The notes beneath the pieces are model-generated. The model saw only the letters and a program-made list of their open reading frames with translations. It did not search any database and was not told where the DNA came from. Of a DNA stretch of 44,241 nucleotides, positions 1 to 6,528 are shown one piece after another. This DNA comes from Escherichia phage vB_EcoP_KAW1A4500. Every line of letters starts with the position of its first letter. Position 1 is the first letter of the stretch. The stretch is from the sequence record MK373773.1; one strand, 5' to 3'. Position numbers and translations under genes: made by a program.

Positions 1-267
1 TCTCGCCCTCGCCCTCGCCGGATTTCCCCCATATGGGGCCGCGCTGCGGTTGGCTTGGGAGTTGGGCTGGGCTGGTCCGTCTTCGACGGGTGGCCTAGGG
101 CTTGCCGAGGTCTGCTCTTAGTGGCTGCACAAGGAGAACGCCTAGGAAGCGCTAGGGCACGCCTTAGTATTGGACAAGGTGATTGCCTTAGTGCAACCGC
201 TTAGGGCTTACACAGGCCGTTTTAGGGCCATTCCTGAGCTTTTGACAGGGTGGGCGTGGGTGGGCTA
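1..267. repeat. Left direct terminal repeat (DTR), 267 bp, GC-rich
   Basis: Bases 1..267 are identical to 43975..44241; both copies end at the same base and the right copy runs to the window end. Typical T7-group terminal redundancy. Confidence 0.9.
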
Positions 268-665
268 TCTGTTCGTTTCGCTCCACTGCGTTACGCTACA
301 CTCACCGCGCTTGTGTACCTTAGGTTATTCCTTGATGGATAGCTTAGGTTAGCCTTAGTGGACTACCTTAGTTAAAGCCTTAGTGCTTAGCTTAGTATCA
401 GCTTAGTAGTGTACCTTAGTCAGACTTAGTGTCTTCTCTTAGTGATTGCACATGCAAGCATGTAAGATGCCATTAGGTCGCGGTCGGTAGACCGCTAAAG
501 AAAGAGAATAGTAATAAGATGCAGTAGGAGGAACACCAGAAACCTAGCCTATCCTAGCTCTGTATCTATTGCTTTCCTTAGTCTCACATGTTAGACAACC
601 TATGTTTATCTTAGTAGTTGTGACATGTATCACATAAATAATCTATCTTAGTGAAACTTAGTGTT
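163..665. repeat. Array of about 18 short CTTAGT/CTTAGG repeats at the left end
   Basis: Irregularly spaced copies of (C)CTTAG(T/G) from inside the DTR to the first early promoter; positional analogue of the T7 left-end short-repeat array (analogy is inference). Confidence 0.55.
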
Positions 666-692
666 GACATAGGCAATCAACTGGTATACATT
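664..692 (+). promoter_or_regulatory. Host sigma70-type early promoter candidate (TTGACA-N17-TACATT)
   Basis: -35 TTGACA at 664..669, 17-bp spacer, -10 TACATT at 687..692; same arrangement recurs at 1631..1659. Confidence 0.5.
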
Positions 693-842
693 AGCAATCA
701 CTGAGACGGACCTAGCAAGCTGTCTCAGGTTATAAGCAGGAGAATTGATGCGTAAGCCATAGCTAGTGGATGTAGTCGCATGAAGGCTTGAGTAAGGGGC
801 CGCTTAATACCTTCTTCCTCTGGAGACAACGCTTATAACACT

Positions 843-855
843 GCTCTTTAACAAT
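843..855 (+). promoter_or_regulatory. Conserved 13-mer box GCTCTTTAACAAT (copy 1 of 3)
   Basis: Exact 13-mer repeated at 843, 1693 and 2005, each 55-110 bp upstream of an early gene start; function unknown. Confidence 0.4.
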
Positions 856-912
856 CTGCTTAGTGTAACCTATGTATGCCGTGGTTAATTACTTATTGAA
901 TAGGAATTACCT

Positions 913-1008
913 ATGAATTATGAAGAAATGTATGAAGTCTATTTCGACTCATTAGATGAAGGAGAAGAAGCATTATCCTTCGCTGAGTTTGTGGAGGCCT
1001 TATCGTGA
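913..1008 (+). CDS. Small acidic early protein (31 aa), hypothetical
   Basis: ATG at 913 after AGGA; below the ORF-track size cutoff; stop overlaps the GTG start of the next ORF. Confidence 0.3.
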   Translation: MNYEEMYEVYFDSLDEGEEALSFAEFVEALS

Positions 1009-1232
1009 AAGTACAGGTAAGGGCTTACAACATGCCAGTTGATGAGATTCAGCACTTTCTAGATAAAGGCTATGATTTATGTAAGATGCGCACACCAGAT
1101 AACTATGACTACTCACCTAAATATCTGCATTATATTGATCTTAAGATGGGTAAGAAGTTAGTTATTACAGGTACTGCATATAACCGCATTATCAAAGTTC
1201 TCAAAGAGGGTGCTAATCATGACATTAAATAA
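1005..1232 (+). CDS. Early protein, hypothetical (75 aa from GTG; alternative ATG at 1032)
   Basis: ORF track; GGAGG lies 7 nt upstream of GTG 1005; position in early operon. Confidence 0.5.
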   Translation: MKVQVRAYNMPVDEIQHFLDKGYDLCKMRTPDNYDYSPKYLHYIDLKMGKKLVITGTAYNRIIKVLKEGANHDIK

Positions 1233-1398
1233 CCGTGAACTGCACGTTCTCTTCACCCTGTTATGTTACATGATTCGTAACAACGAATTACTTACAGATG
1301 ATGAGTTAGCCTTGTATCACCGCTTTCTTAACGAAGGTTGGACCGATATAGTTAATCAATACCGTAACATGATAGATGAGTTGAGGGAGGGTAAATAA
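1219..1398 (+). CDS. Early protein, hypothetical (59 aa)
   Basis: ORF track 1210..1398; ATG at 1219 preceded by GAGGG; overlaps neighbours as in compact phage operons. Confidence 0.5.
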   Translation: MTLNNRELHVLFTLLCYMIRNNELLTDDELALYHRFLNEGWTDIVNQYRNMIDELREGK

Positions 1399-1622
1399 TG
1401 TATCAACATGAGGTATTCTTTGAATCAGCTAGCGAAGCTATTCGCTTCCGTGATGATATGATGCAAGCTGGTGTAGGCGTTGATGTGTATCACTATTTGA
1501 TAGACTACGACACTGAATATCACCGAGTTACCTTAGTATCTGAGTATGACAACCAAGTCATTACTGAGTATCTAGGTAGTGAAGATTATGATTACGATGA
1601 AGTAATCACGACAAATCTCTAA
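1398..1622 (+). CDS. Acidic early protein, hypothetical (74 aa)
   Basis: ORF track; ATG overlaps preceding stop (TAATG) with GGGAGGG upstream. Confidence 0.55.
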   Translation: MYQHEVFFESASEAIRFRDDMMQAGVGVDVYHYLIDYDTEYHRVTLVSEYDNQVITEYLGSEDYDYDEVITTNL

Positions 1623-1630
1623 ATTAACTA

Positions 1631-1659
1631 TTGACAACCACGGCATACAAGGTTACATT
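1631..1659 (+). promoter_or_regulatory. Host sigma70-type early promoter candidate (TTGACA-N17-TACATT)
   Basis: -35 TTGACA 1631..1636, 17-bp spacer, -10 TACATT 1654..1659; identical hexamers and spacing to the 664 promoter. Confidence 0.5.
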
Positions 1660-1692
1660 AAGCATCAAGACGGCGACGTCTTTAAACATCCC

Positions 1693-1705
1693 GCTCTTTA
1701 ACAAT
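1693..1705 (+). promoter_or_regulatory. Conserved 13-mer box GCTCTTTAACAAT (copy 2 of 3)
   Basis: Exact repeat of the 843 box, about 30 nt downstream of the predicted start of the 1631 promoter transcript. Confidence 0.4.
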
Positions 1706-1748
1706 AGGGCTAGTGCCTTGGTAGGCTAACTACTTACTAAGGTGAACT

Positions 1749-1961
1749 ATGAACTACTGCGACATCGCTCACGAATTACGCATGGAACGTGAGAAACAAG
1801 AGAAGCGGATTATCAAGAAGATGGCTGTACTGCTTGCACACTATAAGGCAGACAAACAGCCAACACATGATGAGTTCGTGGACTTCTGTAACATGTATCT
1901 TAATGTGAGTAAGGCCACTGGTTACAGATGGCTTAAAGCACTGAATGATGGAGAATTGTAG
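1749..1961 (+). CDS. Small early protein with helix-turn-helix-like C-terminus (70 aa)
   Basis: ORF track; C-terminal NVSKATGYRWLKALNDGEL resembles a DNA-binding helix-turn-helix (inference from motif only). Confidence 0.55.
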   Translation: MNYCDIAHELRMEREKQEKRIIKKMAVLLAHYKADKQPTHDEFVDFCNMYLNVSKATGYRWLKALNDGEL

Positions 1962-2004
1962 CAATAAGCCAGCTTAATAGCCAGCCTATCAAGGCACAAG
2001 CCAC

Positions 2005-2017
2005 GCTCTTTAACAAT
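2005..2017 (+). promoter_or_regulatory. Conserved 13-mer box GCTCTTTAACAAT (copy 3 of 3)
   Basis: Exact repeat, about 110 bp upstream of the Ocr start. Confidence 0.4.
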
Positions 2018-2113
2018 ATGGGTAGTCGCTTCTTAGTCTGGATAGGTTAAACCTAGGAGATTCTCTTGAGTCTCCTATAATGTAACCTAACTAACTAAAT
2101 GAGGATTAATAAC

Positions 2114-2470
2114 ATGGCTATGTCTAATAAGACTTACTCTCAGGTTTACAACACCGCTCATGCTGCATTAGTTGAACGTATCTGGGATGATGCTATTGAT
2201 TGTATCGATAACGCACATGATGCAATCCATGAGGTGGCGGATAGTGCTGTACCAATCTATTATGCTGACATCTTCTCGGTGATGGCCAGTGAAGGCATCG
2301 ACCACTTCTTCGAGGATTCTGGCTTAATGCCAGACACTAAGGATGTGACGGTCGTACTACAAGCCCGTATTTATGAACAACTCACCATTGATTTATGGGA
2401 ACGTGTTCAAGATATGATTGATGCGTACATCGATTCCGCTGAGGATTCAGAAGAAGAGGAGGAAGAATAA
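2114..2470 (+). CDS. ocr: Ocr-like DNA-mimic anti-restriction protein (T7 gene 0.3 family)
   Basis: Translation MAMSNKTY...[34 protein letters not shown]...[14 protein letters not shown]... with poly-Glu tail closely matches T7 Ocr as recalled; GAGGA RBS; first sizeable early gene. Confidence 0.88.
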
Positions 2471-2662
2471 AGATAGAAAGGCAATATAACTTCATCTTCT
2501 CAGACGGTGTAACCCTGAAATGTTCCTTACGATTTGCGCAGATTCGTGAGGAAGTACTAGGAACTACATACAAGCTATTTAGCTGACACTATAAGAGAAG
2601 GCTTAACAAGGCGTTGCTACGGTAGCGCCTGATTAAACTTTCACTTACTAGGAGTTAAGATT

Positions 2663-2890
2663 ATGGATTTAGATAGCATCATTATGGCATTTGCTCTTAT
2701 TGGCTTAAGCTGGTGCTCCTATCACCTTTACCGTGAGCTCTTATTTGATAAAGCTAAACGCAAACTAAGAAAGGAAGGCGGTAATTACCTTTGTATAAGA
2801 GGTGGCTTAGTCGAATACATTGCACCTAACGGCATGGAGTGCGCCATTAACAAAGATGCATTTATAGAGACGTGGCATTACATCAAGTAG
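2663..2890 (+). CDS. Small early membrane protein, hypothetical (75 aa)
   Basis: ORF track; N-terminal hydrophobic segment AFALIGLSWCSY; AGGAG RBS. Confidence 0.55.
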   Translation: MDLDSIIMAFALIGLSWCSYHLYRELLFDKAKRKLRKEGGNYLCIRGGLVEYIAPNGMECAINKDAFIETWHYIK

Positions 2891-2954
2891 CTAGCCTATA
2901 GCCTACCTGTGTGGGCTATGTGATATTTACTTACCACTATATAAGGTGACTATT

Positions 2955-3839
2955 ATGACTACTGAAAACACCCTCCTGTCTGTCCGCGAAGCTGCAACCG
3001 CTGAGATTAAGCAGCATTTGGATAATATCGGCACTTCTTACATCAAAGTAGGTGCTTGTCTGAATGAGTTACGCGGAGACTTCGAAGGTCAAAAAGAGTT
3101 CTTAGCCTATGTTGAAGCAGAGTTCGGCATCAAGAAAGCACAATGCTACAAGCTGATGAGTGTAGCCCGTGTCTTTGAAGGTGACGAACGATTCAAAGGC
3201 GTGGCTATGCGTGTAATGCTGGCGCTTGTTCCTTTCGCTGATGAGAGTATCATCATGGAGAAGGCCGCAGAACTTGCCGCAGAGGGCAAGCTGGACACTA
3301 ACGCCGTAAACGCCCTAATTGAGTCTAAGAAAGAGCCAAAGGCCGAGACGGTACAATCTAAGGCTGAGCCAGTAAAACCGCAGGAGAACGCGGCTGAGGC
3401 CGCAGAATCACAGGAAACGCAAGCGCCGCAGGTAGTGCCGCCAATGAGTGAGCCGGACACCGACGAATCCGCACAGTGGGAGGGCGAAAGCAAGCCGGAA
3501 GCACCTAAGGCTGCGCCTCTGGACAACACTGCTAACACAGAGAACGCCGCCATGGCTGGCCTGTTGGCACAAATTAAGGCACTGACTGAGCAATTACAGG
3601 CGGCTAACGACCGCATCGCAGCTCTAACCAGTGCACGTGAAAGCAAGAAGGCAGCCGCGCCTATGCTCCCACAATTCAAATCCAAATGTTTCTATGCTCG
3701 CTTGGGTTTGAGTGCTGAGGAGGCAGAGAAGAAAACAGCAGTGAACAAGGCACGCCGCGAACTGGTTAAACTGGGATACGGTGAAGGCCATGAGGCATGG
3801 CCCTTAATCTCTGAGGCAGTAGAAGAATTAACTAAGTAA
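2955..3839 (+). CDS. Early protein of unknown function (294 aa): HTH-like N-domain, Pro/Glu/Ala-rich linker, coiled-coil C-domain
   Basis: ORF track 2946..3839 with ATG at 2955; sits where T7 has gene 0.7 but shows no kinase-like sequence. Confidence 0.65.
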   Translation: MTTENTLLSVREAATAEIKQHLDNIGTSYIKVGACLNELRGDFEGQKEFLAYVEAEFGIKKAQCYKLMSVARVFEGDERFKGVAMRVMLALVPFADESIIMEKAAELAAEGKLDTNAVNALIESKKEPKAETVQSKAEPVKPQENAAEAAESQETQAPQVVPPMSEPDTDESAQWEGESKPEAPKAAPLDNTANTENAAMAGLLAQIKALTEQLQAANDRIAALTSARESKKAAAPMLPQFKSKCFYARLGLSAEEAEKKTAVNKARRELVKLGYGEGHEAWPLISEAVEELTK

Positions 3840-3902
3840 CCTTATCGGTGGCATCTTCTTAGGTGTCACCTATTAAGGTTTCTTTCACTAGGAGTAAACA
3901 AG

Positions 3903-6528
3903 ATGCAAGACCTACACGCTATTCAACTTCAACTTGAAGAAGAAATGTTTAACGGCGGTATCCGTCGCTTTGAAGCGGACCAACAACGCCAGATTGCATC
4001 CGGTAATGAATCAGACACGGCATGGAATCGCCGTTTATTGTCCGAGTTAATCGCGCCAATGGCTGAAGGTATTCAGGCATACAAGGAAGAGTATGAAGGT
4101 AAAAGAGGCCGTGCACCGCGTGCATTAGCTTTCATTAACTGCGTAGAAAACGAAGTGGCAGCATATATCACGATGAAAATCGTTATGGATATGCTGAATA
4201 CAGACGTTACCTTACAAGCAATCGCTATGAATGTAGCGGACCGCATCGAAGACCAAGTACGTTTTAGCAAGCTGGAAGGTCACGCAGCTAAGTACTTTGA
4301 GAAAGTGAAGAAGTCGCTTAAGGCTAGCAAGACTAAATCTTATCGTCATGCGCACAACGTAGCGGTAGTAGCTGAGAAATCTGTTGCTGACCGTGACGCG
4401 GATTTCTCCCGTTGGGAGGCATGGCCTAAAGATACCTTGCTACAAATCGGTATGACCTTGCTAGAAATACTGGAAAATAGTGTATTCTTCAATGGTCAGC
4501 CTGTCTTTCTTCGCACCTTGCGCACTAATGGTGGCAAGCATGGCGTTTACTACTTACAGACCAGTGAACACGTAGGGGAATGGATTACAGCATTTAAAGA
4601 ACATGTAGCGCAACTTAGCCCGGCTTATGCACCTTGCGTTATACCTCCGCGTCCGTGGGTTTCTCCTTTTAATGGCGGTTTTCACACTGAGAAGGTAGCA
4701 AGTCGTGTGCGTCTTGTTAAAGGCAGCCGTGAACGTCCGCAAGCTGACCAAAAAGCAAATGCCAGCGGTTTACAAGGCTGTTAACGCTTTGCAGGCGACT
4801 AAATGGCAGGTTAACAAGGAAGTTTTACAGGTTGTTGAGGACGTAATACGGCTTGATTTAGGCTATGGCGTACCTTCCTTCAAACCACTCATCGACCGCG
4901 AGAACAAGCCAGCTAATCCGGTGCCGTTAGAGTTCCAGCACCTGCGAGGCCGTGAACTGAAAGAAATGTTAACACCGGAACAATGGCAAGCCTTCATCAA
5001 CTGGAAAGGTGAATGCACCAAGCTGTATACCGCTGAGACTAAGCGCGGCAGCAAATCGGCGGCGACCGTCCGCATGGTAGGGCAGGCCCGTAAATACAGC
5101 CAATTTGACGCAATATACTTCGTGTATGCTCTGGACAGCCGCAGCCGCGTCTACGCGCAATCTAGCACGCTCTCTCCGCAATCAAACGACTTAGGCAAGG
5201 CATTGCTCCGTTTTACCGAAGGGCAGCGTCTTGATAGCGCTGAGGCGCTTAAGTGGTTTTTGGTGAACGGGGCTAATAACTGGGGTTGGGATAAGAAAAC
5301 TTTTGACGTGCGCACCGCTAACGTGCTGGATAGTGAATTTCAAGACATGTGCCGCGACATTGCAGCGGATCCGCTGACCTTCACTCAATGGGTAAATGCC
5401 GACTCCCCTTACGGCTTCCTTGCATGGTGCTTTGAATATGCGCGTTATCTGGATGCACTGGATGAAGGCACGCAAGACCAATTCATGACGCACCTCCCAG
5501 TCCATCAAGATGGTAGTTGTTCTGGTATCCAGCACTACAGTGCTATGCTACGCGATGCAGTAGGTGCGAAAGCGGTAAACCTTAAGCCCTCTGACTCACC
5601 TCAAGATATTTATGGTGCCGTTGCGCAGGTAGTAATTCAGAAGAATTATGCATACATGAATGCAGAGGATGCGGAAACCTTCACTTCTGGCAGCGTGACT
5701 TTAACAGGTGCAGAACTTCGTAGCATGGCTAGTGCGTGGGATATGATAGGAATCACTCGCGGCCTGACCAAAAAGCCTGTAATGACACTACCTTATGGCA
5801 GCACACGTCTAACCTGCCGTGAATCAGTGATTGATTATATCGTTGATTTGGAAGAAAAAGAGGCCCAACGGGCTATTGCGGAAGGGCGTACCGCCAATCC
5901 TGTACATCCTTTTGATAATGACCGCAAAGACAGCCTGACACCTAGCGCAGCTTATAACTATATGACAGCTTTAATCTGGCCTTCTATTTCGGAAGTGGTT
6001 AAAGCTCCTATAGTGGCAATGAAAATGATTCGTCAGCTTGCACGTTTCGCAGCTAAAAGAAACGAAGGCTTAGAATATCCCTTACCAACTGGCTTCATCT
6101 TGCAACAAAAGATAATGGCTACCGATATGCTCCGCGTATCCACTTGCTTGATGGGTGAAATCAAGATGAGTCTCCAGATTGAAACAGATGTAGTTGATGA
6201 AACGGCAATGATGGGTGCGGCTGCTCCTAACTTCGTCCATGGTCACGATGCTAGCCACCTGATTCTGACTGTATGTGACCTAGTGGATAAAGGTATTACA
6301 TCCATTGCAGTCATCCATGATTCTTTCGGTACTCATGCAGGACGTACCGCAGACCTGCGGGATAGCTTAAGGGAAGAAATGGTTAAGATGTATCAAAACC
6401 ATAATGCCCTGCAAAATCTGCTAGATGTGCACGAAGAGCGTTGGTTAGTAGACACCGGAATCCAAGTACCAGAGCAAGGAGAGTTTGACCTTAACGAAAT
6501 CTTAGTTTCAGACTATTGTTTCGCATAA
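3903..6528 (+). CDS. Phage single-subunit DNA-directed RNA polymerase (SP6-type), interrupted by an apparent frameshift near 4734
   Basis: Two overlapping ORFs (3903..4784 and 4705..6528) together give an RNAP of about 874 aa; N-terminus [19 protein letters not shown] and palm motifs ([21 protein letters not shown]) match SP6-type RNAP as recalled. Confidence 0.9.

Follow-up and report, generated by a model that had tools for sequence, protein, structure and literature searches.

Results

We analyzed a repeated 13-mer, GCTCTTTAACAAT, in the early region of Escherichia phage vB_EcoP_KAW1A4500 (MK373773.1; KAW1A4500 below). The window was the full stretch of 44,241 nucleotides (nt), and all coordinates count its first letter as base 1. 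The window is a complete SP6/K1E-like coliphage genome (Vectrevirus, Autographiviridae) whose left end is base 1, and over the 1.6 kb compared (600 to 2200) its early region is 99.3% identical to that of vB_EcoA_fTuEco01 (fTuEco01 below) and about 95% identical to that of K1E. As an earlier reading made from the letters alone (the sequence-only reading) had reported and a sequence search confirmed, the 13-mer occurs in exactly three copies, at 843 to 855, 1693 to 1705, and 2005 to 2017, all on the plus strand. No further copy with up to two mismatches was found on either strand of the 44 kb. That reading had also judged the copy number to be far above chance, and not even one exact match appeared in 100 dinucleotide-preserving shuffles of the genome. 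Its estimate that the copies lie 55 to 110 bp upstream of early gene starts agrees with our measurements of 70, 56, and 109 nt from the start of each copy to the next plausible start codon (913, 1749, and 2114, respectively), or 57, 43, and 96 nt from its end. We refer to the three copies as boxA1, boxA2, and boxA3, in this order, for the reason given below.

The genes and predicted signals around these copies are all on the plus strand. A consensus scan predicted an early σ70-like promoter, P1, at 664 to 692 (TTGACA-17-TACATT, 10 of 12 matches), from which RNA would start near 699, about 145 nt 5' of boxA1. Four small early open reading frames (ORFs) follow boxA1, at 913 to 1008, 1005 to 1232, 1219 to 1398, and 1398 to 1622. 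A second σ70-like promoter, P2, was predicted by the same scan at 1631 to 1659 (TTGACA at 1631 to 1636, a spacer of 17, and TACATT at 1654 to 1659), with an RNA start near 1666; a small hairpin in the fold, AAGACG-GCGA-CGUCUU (1667 to 1682), whose sequence is kept in relatives, lies at the predicted 5' end of P2 transcripts. BoxA2 precedes a 70-amino-acid early ORF (1749 to 1961) that is a homologue of K1E gp2.5, and boxA3 precedes ocr, the gene 0.3 homologue (2114 to 2470; Pfam PF08684, E = 7e-41). No promoter-like site belonging to boxA3 itself was found upstream of it, either by consensus scan or by eye. The first phage-type (SP6-like) promoter core, a variant found by motif scan at 2577 to 2597, ends the stretch open only to host RNA polymerase (RNAP). 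Since all three boxes lie 3' of σ70-like promoters and 5' of this core, they fall within the host-RNAP-only stretch, and it is reasonable to place them on early host-RNAP transcripts made from the predicted promoters, as the sequence-only reading had proposed.

In E. coli K-12 rrnB, the leader boxA, about 130 nt 5' of the 16S gene, has exactly the sequence of the 13-mer, and the boxA of the rrnB 16S-23S spacer differs from it by one mismatch. Together with the CACT upstream of it, boxA1 has 17 consecutive bases in common with the rrnB leader (CACTGCTCTTTAACAAT). All three copies match exactly the published gammaproteobacterial boxA consensus GYTCTTTAANA and the E. coli rrn sequence 5'-UGCUCUUUAACAA, and the 13-mer fits the rrn boxA RNA 5'-CACugcucuuuaacaauuua from published binding studies. 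GYTCTTTAANA matches the KAW1A4500 genome exactly only at the three copies; a further five sites match with one mismatch, no more than expected by chance, and every one of them is on the minus strand. The 13-mer is an rrn-type boxA and belongs by its sequence to the class of sites for host NusB-NusE(S10), by which it is predicted to be bound. The sequence-only reading had offered an early regulator as a possible binder; the identity with the host rrnB leader boxA and the fit to the consensus point to a host-factor site rather than a phage-regulator site.

The box is of the full rrn type with UUUA, not of the lambda type. No convincing boxB was found, as the folds hold no boxB-like short hairpin after any copy, and the GU-rich stretch 3' of the box resembles boxC only loosely. 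Besides, no N- or Q-like antiterminator was found among the early ORFs, which is consistent with an rrn-type system relying on host factors only. A lambda-type nut site was rejected on the basis of the missing boxB-like hairpin, the lack of an N-like family among the early ORFs, and the type of the box. An Rfam scan of bases 1 to 6000 by E value returned only chance matches to microRNA models and no family covering the boxA leaders.

An inverted-repeat search revealed long-range complementarity next to the first two boxes. Helix A joins a 30-nt 5' arm (857 to 886), which starts 1 nt after boxA1, to a 3' arm (1636 to 1664) about 30 nt before boxA2; 29 of 29 positions are paired, with one bulge, and the helix encloses the four ORFs between 913 and 1622. 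Helix B joins a 25-nt 5' arm (1708 to 1732), which starts 2 nt after boxA2, to a 3' arm (1978 to 2002) ending 2 nt before boxA3, and it encloses the 70-amino-acid ORF; its arm is paired at 19 of 20 positions, and none of 300 permuted arms matched this. Both helices are closed in minimum-free-energy (MFE) and centroid folds, helix A in 843 to 1705 (z = −5.5) and helix B in 1693 to 2017 (z = −4.0), and whole-unit folds of K1-5 and SP6 likewise close their helices. In helices A and B alike, the 5' strand lies at or just after a boxA and pairs beyond the enclosed product, which is the layout of an rrn operon. Helix A and P2 share sequence, as the 3' arm overlaps with the promoter's spacer and −10 element, and RNA initiated at P2 would be without that arm. 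After boxA2, a competing local hairpin (1715 to 1743) overlaps the Shine-Dalgarno sequence. BoxA3 is followed by a long irregular local hairpin just 5' of ocr (2023 to 2108; z = −4.5), at the position of the RNase III site R0.3 of T7 and T3.

As a positive control, the same search was applied to rrnB, where it recovered the 16S leader-trailer helix (521 to 576 with 2201 to 2256), starting inside the leader boxA, and the 23S helix (2533 to 2553 with 5580 to 5600), starting at the end of the spacer boxA. In a permutation test with ungapped 20-nt arms, 0 of 300 permuted arms were as good as the real one at both rrnB boxAs, at boxA2 of KAW1A4500, at boxA1 and boxA2 of SP6, and at boxA2 of K1-5. 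Helix A of KAW1A4500 and K1-5 failed this test because it has a central bulge whereas the arms tested were ungapped. The position of the arms is also fixed among relatives: when the 20 nt that start 2 nt after a boxA are taken as an arm, the best partner pairs at 19 or 20 of 20 positions and ends exactly 2 nt before the next boxA, and this register holds in every B-, C-, and D-type cassette of the relatives, against background best scores of 13 to 16. By the permutation test, no significant long-range arm follows boxA in T7, T3, phiYeO3-12, K1F, K11, or gh-1, and Era103 has a weaker helix of unrelated sequence, enclosing genes 02 to 04. As a negative control, we took 120 IMG/VR loci with the 14-mer CGCTCTTTAACAAT among the matches listed, mostly not T7/SP6-like and chosen without regard to phage type; such an arm was present at 2 of 137 boxA-like sites, both in SP6-like contigs.

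The pairing is also kept where the sequences of relatives vary, with the caveat that the structures were derived from the same sequences in which changes were counted. For helix A (7 distinct rows of relatives by 30 pairs), 99.5% of the cells are paired, versus 24 to 38% when the partner is slid by 1 to 3 columns, and there are two compensatory, both-sided pair changes. In the homologous helix of one relative (L009), counted from explicit pair lists and not from the MAFFT alignment, 25 of 25 pairs are formed, and five double-sided changes relative to helix A are located at its two ends. The helix B family (11 rows by 23 pairs) is 97.2% paired, with one A-U to U-A swap and six one-sided changes that preserve pairing by wobble; in another relative (L112), both arms of this family are 2 nt shorter, with matching substitutions. 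A short post-stop hairpin that seemed to covary (GGCTGGC...GCCAGCC versus GCCAGC...GCTGGC) was not counted as part of the unit: SP6 and L112 have direct repeats there.

The sequence-only reading had tied its proposal to conservation in related phages, and the box is present in T7, T3, phiYeO3-12, K1F, K11, gh-1, Era103, and SP6-like phages. In each of these it is in the early leader and on the sense strand: in T7 at 813 to 825 (between promoter A3 and gene 0.3), in T3 at 781 to 793, in phiYeO3-12 at 915, in K1F at 669, and in K11 at 767 (just 3' of the last annotated host promoter). The box of the Pseudomonas phage gh-1, at 728, matches at 12 of 13 positions, and that of Era103, at 1493, is a GTTC variant. 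K1-5 has boxes at 710, 1255, and 1467; SP6 has two, at 656 and 926, and a degenerate third, GATCTTTAACAAT, at 1536. Apart from the copies named, neither strand of KAW1A4500, K1-5, SP6, K1F (39 of 39.7 kb), or Era103 (45 of 45.4 kb) has a match with up to one mismatch. In total, boxA was found in 7 T7/SP6-type genera beyond 17 SP6-like genomes. A boxA was not found in the first 5 to 6 kb of phiKMV and VP4, so the element is not universal in the Autographiviridae. The 17 SP6-like genomes or contigs carry 2 to 5 copies each, and the copies are confined to the region read by host RNAP. The box is conserved relative to its flanks, since 50 of 55 copies are exact, in a set pre-filtered by requiring at most one mismatch, and the upstream flanks are free to vary (0.3 to 1.1 bits). 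CGCTCTTTAACAAT occurs in at least 120 IMG/VR viral contigs, and about 10 of these, among the matches listed, resemble T7 or SP6 in their Ocr or RNAP; rrn-type boxAs may be common in other phage groups or prophages.

No boxA feature is annotated in the public records of T7, T3, phiYeO3-12, K11, gh-1, K1E, K1-5, or SP6. In reviews of T7, its copy has reportedly been noted as an rrn-like boxA without an assigned role.

RNase III processing signals had been another candidate of the sequence-only reading. The 13-mer, however, is unpaired in local and whole-unit folds, both MFE and centroid (as is boxA1 in the fold of 843 to 1705), with boxA2 weakly paired in one MFE fold only, and in T3 and in phiYeO3-12 a distance of 29 nt separates the box from the annotated R0.3 stem-loop 3' of it. 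On these grounds we rejected the 13-mer as an RNase III site. In the T7 group, such a site is itself an irregular double-stranded RNA of about 20 bp, and here only the neighboring structures have this form. What survives of the earlier proposal is the idea of a signal acting in cis on early transcripts, with RNase III-type structures nearby, in the form of the long-range helices and the R0.3-like hairpin; the box itself does not pair, and none of the candidates put forward was boxA. Helices A and B and the hairpin at 2023 to 2108 are, as modeled, probable RNase III substrates, and duplexes of 25 to 30 nt are of a length compatible with this enzyme.

The number of boxes follows the number of small-gene cassettes, and the same cassettes occur in differing order in close relatives. 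fTuEco01 has one extra cassette between two boxes, which KAW1A4500 does not have (1962 to 2004, versus 1968 to 2283 in fTuEco01). The KAW1A4500 junction GCCAGCttaataGCCAGC (1966 to 1983) is a hybrid of the two fTuEco01 flanks, and the short hairpin of the relatives is destroyed there. Shared junctions evidently allow cassettes to be gained and lost. We regard this shuffling as a consequence of the repeats and not as their purpose because T7-type phages keep a single box. Not every cassette junction keeps a consensus boxA: apart from the degenerate copy in SP6, GCTCTTTTAACAAT, with an extra T, is found near 2238 in K1E, and GCCCTTTAACAAT is found in fTuEco01 (2012) and UTI89UKE2 (1935). A 158-nt mini-cassette without a convincing ORF lies between two boxAs in UTI89UKE2 (1465 to 1635) and T145P2 (1569 to 1739); it is closed by a 12-bp stem abutting both boxes and, judging from this predicted structure, may be a small structured RNA.

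Several other features of the window were recorded. Nine SP6-type promoter cores were found, all on the plus strand, at 2577 to 2597, 8919, 9713, 13241, 15243, 23492, 36251, 38356, and 40698; the eight from 8919 onwards are ACACTATAGAAG, and the first is the variant ACACTATAAGAG. A strong hairpin (2586 to 2657; z = −4.7) lies at or after that first core. An intrinsic-terminator-like hairpin with a T-rich tail (2897 to 2920) stands directly 3' of a 75-amino-acid ORF (2663 to 2890) and 5' of the gene at 2955 to 3839. The phage RNAP gene is broken into two ORFs (3903 to 4784 and 4705 to 6528) by a 2-bp deletion near 4733 relative to K1-5 (CGTGA--ACGTCC); this reflects a real frameshift or else an error in sequencing or assembly. 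By eye, dense short repeats of CTTAG(T)/CCTTAG are visible at the left end, 5' of the early promoters, at about 300 to 460 and 640 to 660.

Discussion

We consider it probable, at roughly 70%, that the 13-mers function as rrn-type boxAs and bring Nus factors to host RNAP on the early transcripts. It is known that, at rrn and other boxAs, binding of the box by NusB-S10 nucleates a Nus complex on RNAP, and that this complex resists Rho in reporter constructs and on CRISPR arrays. T7 RNAP does not use Nus factors. In KAW1A4500, host RNAP would transcribe the box from the σ70 promoters, and the single-stranded GCUCUUUAACAAU would be bound by host NusB-NusE(S10). The bound boxA would nucleate NusA, NusG, and SuhB on the polymerase, as at the E. 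coli rRNA operons, and the polymerase would be made processive and Rho resistant, which would fit an early RNA that is rich in leaders and poorly translated.

The second part of the model, in which the helices are chaperoned and then cut by RNase III, has in our view somewhat less than an even chance of being right. For the 16S leader-trailer helix, it has been proposed that boxA anchored to RNAP holds the leader strand until the trailer emerges. By analogy, boxA RNA would be tethered to the polymerase, and the adjoining 5' arm would be kept where the RNA leaves the exit channel until the 3' arm has come out. RNase III would then cut helices A and B and the hairpin after boxA3, splitting the polycistron into stable messenger RNAs (mRNAs), and the next boxA, 2 to about 30 nt past each 3' arm, would re-establish the Nus complex. 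About as tentatively, the SP6/K1E-like early operon might be a modular mimic of an rRNA operon, with boxA, 5' arm, one or more ORFs, and 3' arm in each cassette. We infer Nus binding, antitermination, helix chaperoning, and RNase III cleavage from the sequence and from the parallel with rrn.

Several observations weigh against this model. In helix A, 27 of the 30 columns never vary, and because its 3' arm overlaps P2, the conservation of that arm could be partly promoter driven. In the helix B family, double-sided changes do not exceed a shuffle control, which we ascribe to the arms being interchangeable between cassettes. It is also possible that, in genomes with adjacent cassettes, a 3' arm pairs locally with the next 5' arm, leaving boxA in the loop. 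T7-type phages have boxA but no long-range helices, so a helix is not a requirement for boxA to function. No boxA was found after the boxA3 hairpin over about 4.4 kb, from ocr through the RNAP gene, and strict reloading after every cut is thus not the whole story. As to antitermination, it has been reported that rrn loci resist Rho without needing Nus factors, which makes this half of the model uncertain. Finally, full-text searches found no paper, among those covered, tying boxA to T7/SP6-like phages.

Translational control, which the sequence-only reading had also suggested, might operate in the manner of suhB or lambda N: a leader looped by the Nus complex would hinder ribosome access, RNase III cleavage would relieve this, and the boxes would time or limit translation. 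BoxA2 and boxA1 end 43 and 57 nt before their start codons, near the 50-nt window used for suhB-type targets; the order of boxA3, hairpin, and ocr start mirrors that of nutL, RNase III site, and N; and the Shine-Dalgarno sequence overlaps with the local hairpin that follows boxA2. We nevertheless give this a minor chance, because the spacing between boxA and the first gene differs from phage to phage (about 100 nt in T7, 320 to 430 nt in K1F, K11, and gh-1), a lytic phage has no obvious gain from repressing early anti-restriction and takeover genes, and the helix arms abutting the boxes are left unexplained.

The junction of 3' arm, boxA, and 5' arm might instead act at the DNA level, mainly as portable homology for recombination between cassettes, with the likeness to rrn being secondary. 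The copy number of 2 to 5 does track the number of cassettes, the order of cassettes differs among close relatives, and KAW1A4500 is without one cassette of fTuEco01 despite 99.3% identity over the 1.6-kb early region. Homology alone, however, would not fix a sequence identical to that of the host rrn, and all copies are on the sense strand and within the host-RNAP region. Besides, T7, T3, K1F, K11, and gh-1 have a single copy and no cassette array, and the deletion junction of KAW1A4500 falls in the post-stop hairpin and not in the box. We thus give this explanation a small chance, below that of translational control.

It is less probable again that the early RNA is a decoy that, through its multiple boxAs, depletes the host rrn operons of NusB-S10 by titration and so aids host shut-off. 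The boxes are consensus, by sequence high-affinity, rrn-type boxAs present in several copies behind strong-looking promoters, but T7-type phages manage with one copy, and a decoy would not explain the fixed placement beside helix arms. Host shut-off in this phage group is normally ascribed to dedicated proteins.

That the 13-mer itself is an RNase III signal or a DNA operator for an early phage regulator is very improbable: although it lies in intergenic leaders and copy 3 is just 5' of the R0.3-like hairpin, the box is predicted to be single stranded, the motif has no palindromic symmetry and is confined to one strand, and an identical sequence exists both in the leader of the host rrn and in phages whose early proteins are unrelated.

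The reading of the 13-mers as rrn-type boxAs can be set beside known systems. In their elements for antitermination and processing (rrnTAC), the E. coli rrn operons resemble the KAW1A4500 early region: they have in common the identical 13-mer (17 bases for boxA1), the type of box that needs host factors only, and the arrangement, with one boxA before each long-range helix, an arm at or just after boxA, and a second boxA after the first helix. On the other hand, the phage helices enclose protein-coding blocks of 0.2 to 0.75 kb and not rRNAs, their arms are 25 to 30 nt long versus about 56 nt, and close relatives of the phage differ in their number of copies, which is anywhere from 2 to 5. T7-type phages have the same sequence on the same strand, between the last early host promoter and gene 0.3, and the box is followed by an RNase III-type hairpin, as is boxA3; they differ from KAW1A4500 in having one copy versus three and no long-range helix after the box. 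One report (PMC11863960) describes a plasmid with T7 fragment 439 to 1012 (promoters A1 to A3, the boxA region, and the start of ocr) as highly toxic. With lambda nutL and nutR and the N leader, KAW1A4500 shares a boxA on an early transcript, which in lambda recruits Nus factors, and the order of boxA, RNase III structure, and gene start; the lambda boxA, however, is CGCUCUUA and needs a boxB hairpin and protein N, whereas the KAW1A4500 box is of the full rrn type.

The suhB 5' untranslated region and the leaders of CRISPR arrays are likewise examples of a consensus boxA in a non-rRNA leader, on untranslated or poorly translated host-RNAP RNA, but they carry single boxes without flanking long-range helices. 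The output at suhB is translational repression, and CRISPR arrays yield a long noncoding RNA that is shielded from Rho. The RNase III sites of the T7 group (R0.3, R0.5, R1, and others) are intergenic double-stranded RNAs between early genes, and the hairpin at 2023 to 2108 is the positional equivalent of R0.3; helices A and B differ from them in being long-range duplexes around whole genes rather than local hairpins, with the 13-mer outside the double-stranded RNA. BoxA itself is a textbook element. What appears to be new is its fusion, in several copies and cassette by cassette, to a long-range helix at every box except the last; in the structures modeled here, boxA1 and boxA2 sit 1 to 2 nt before the 5' arm of a helix enclosing the next block of genes.

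The boxA-helix units of SP6-like phages offer a small, nonessential, and genetically tractable system for a question debated for rRNA operons, namely, whether the Nus/boxA complex is mainly an antiterminator or a tether that helps distant RNA strands to pair. If the modular mimic is true, each unit would use the host Nus complex as an RNA chaperone, and RNase III thereafter, to excise a stable mRNA, and the shared junctions would let phages swap cassettes as ready-to-express units; the occurrence of 2 to 5 copies and of differing cassette orders in near-identical genomes would thereby be explained. The arrangement in SP6-like phages would, besides, supply a rule by which early-region signals and the boundaries of cassettes could be annotated in a group of phages in wide use for therapy against K1 E. 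coli and Salmonella.

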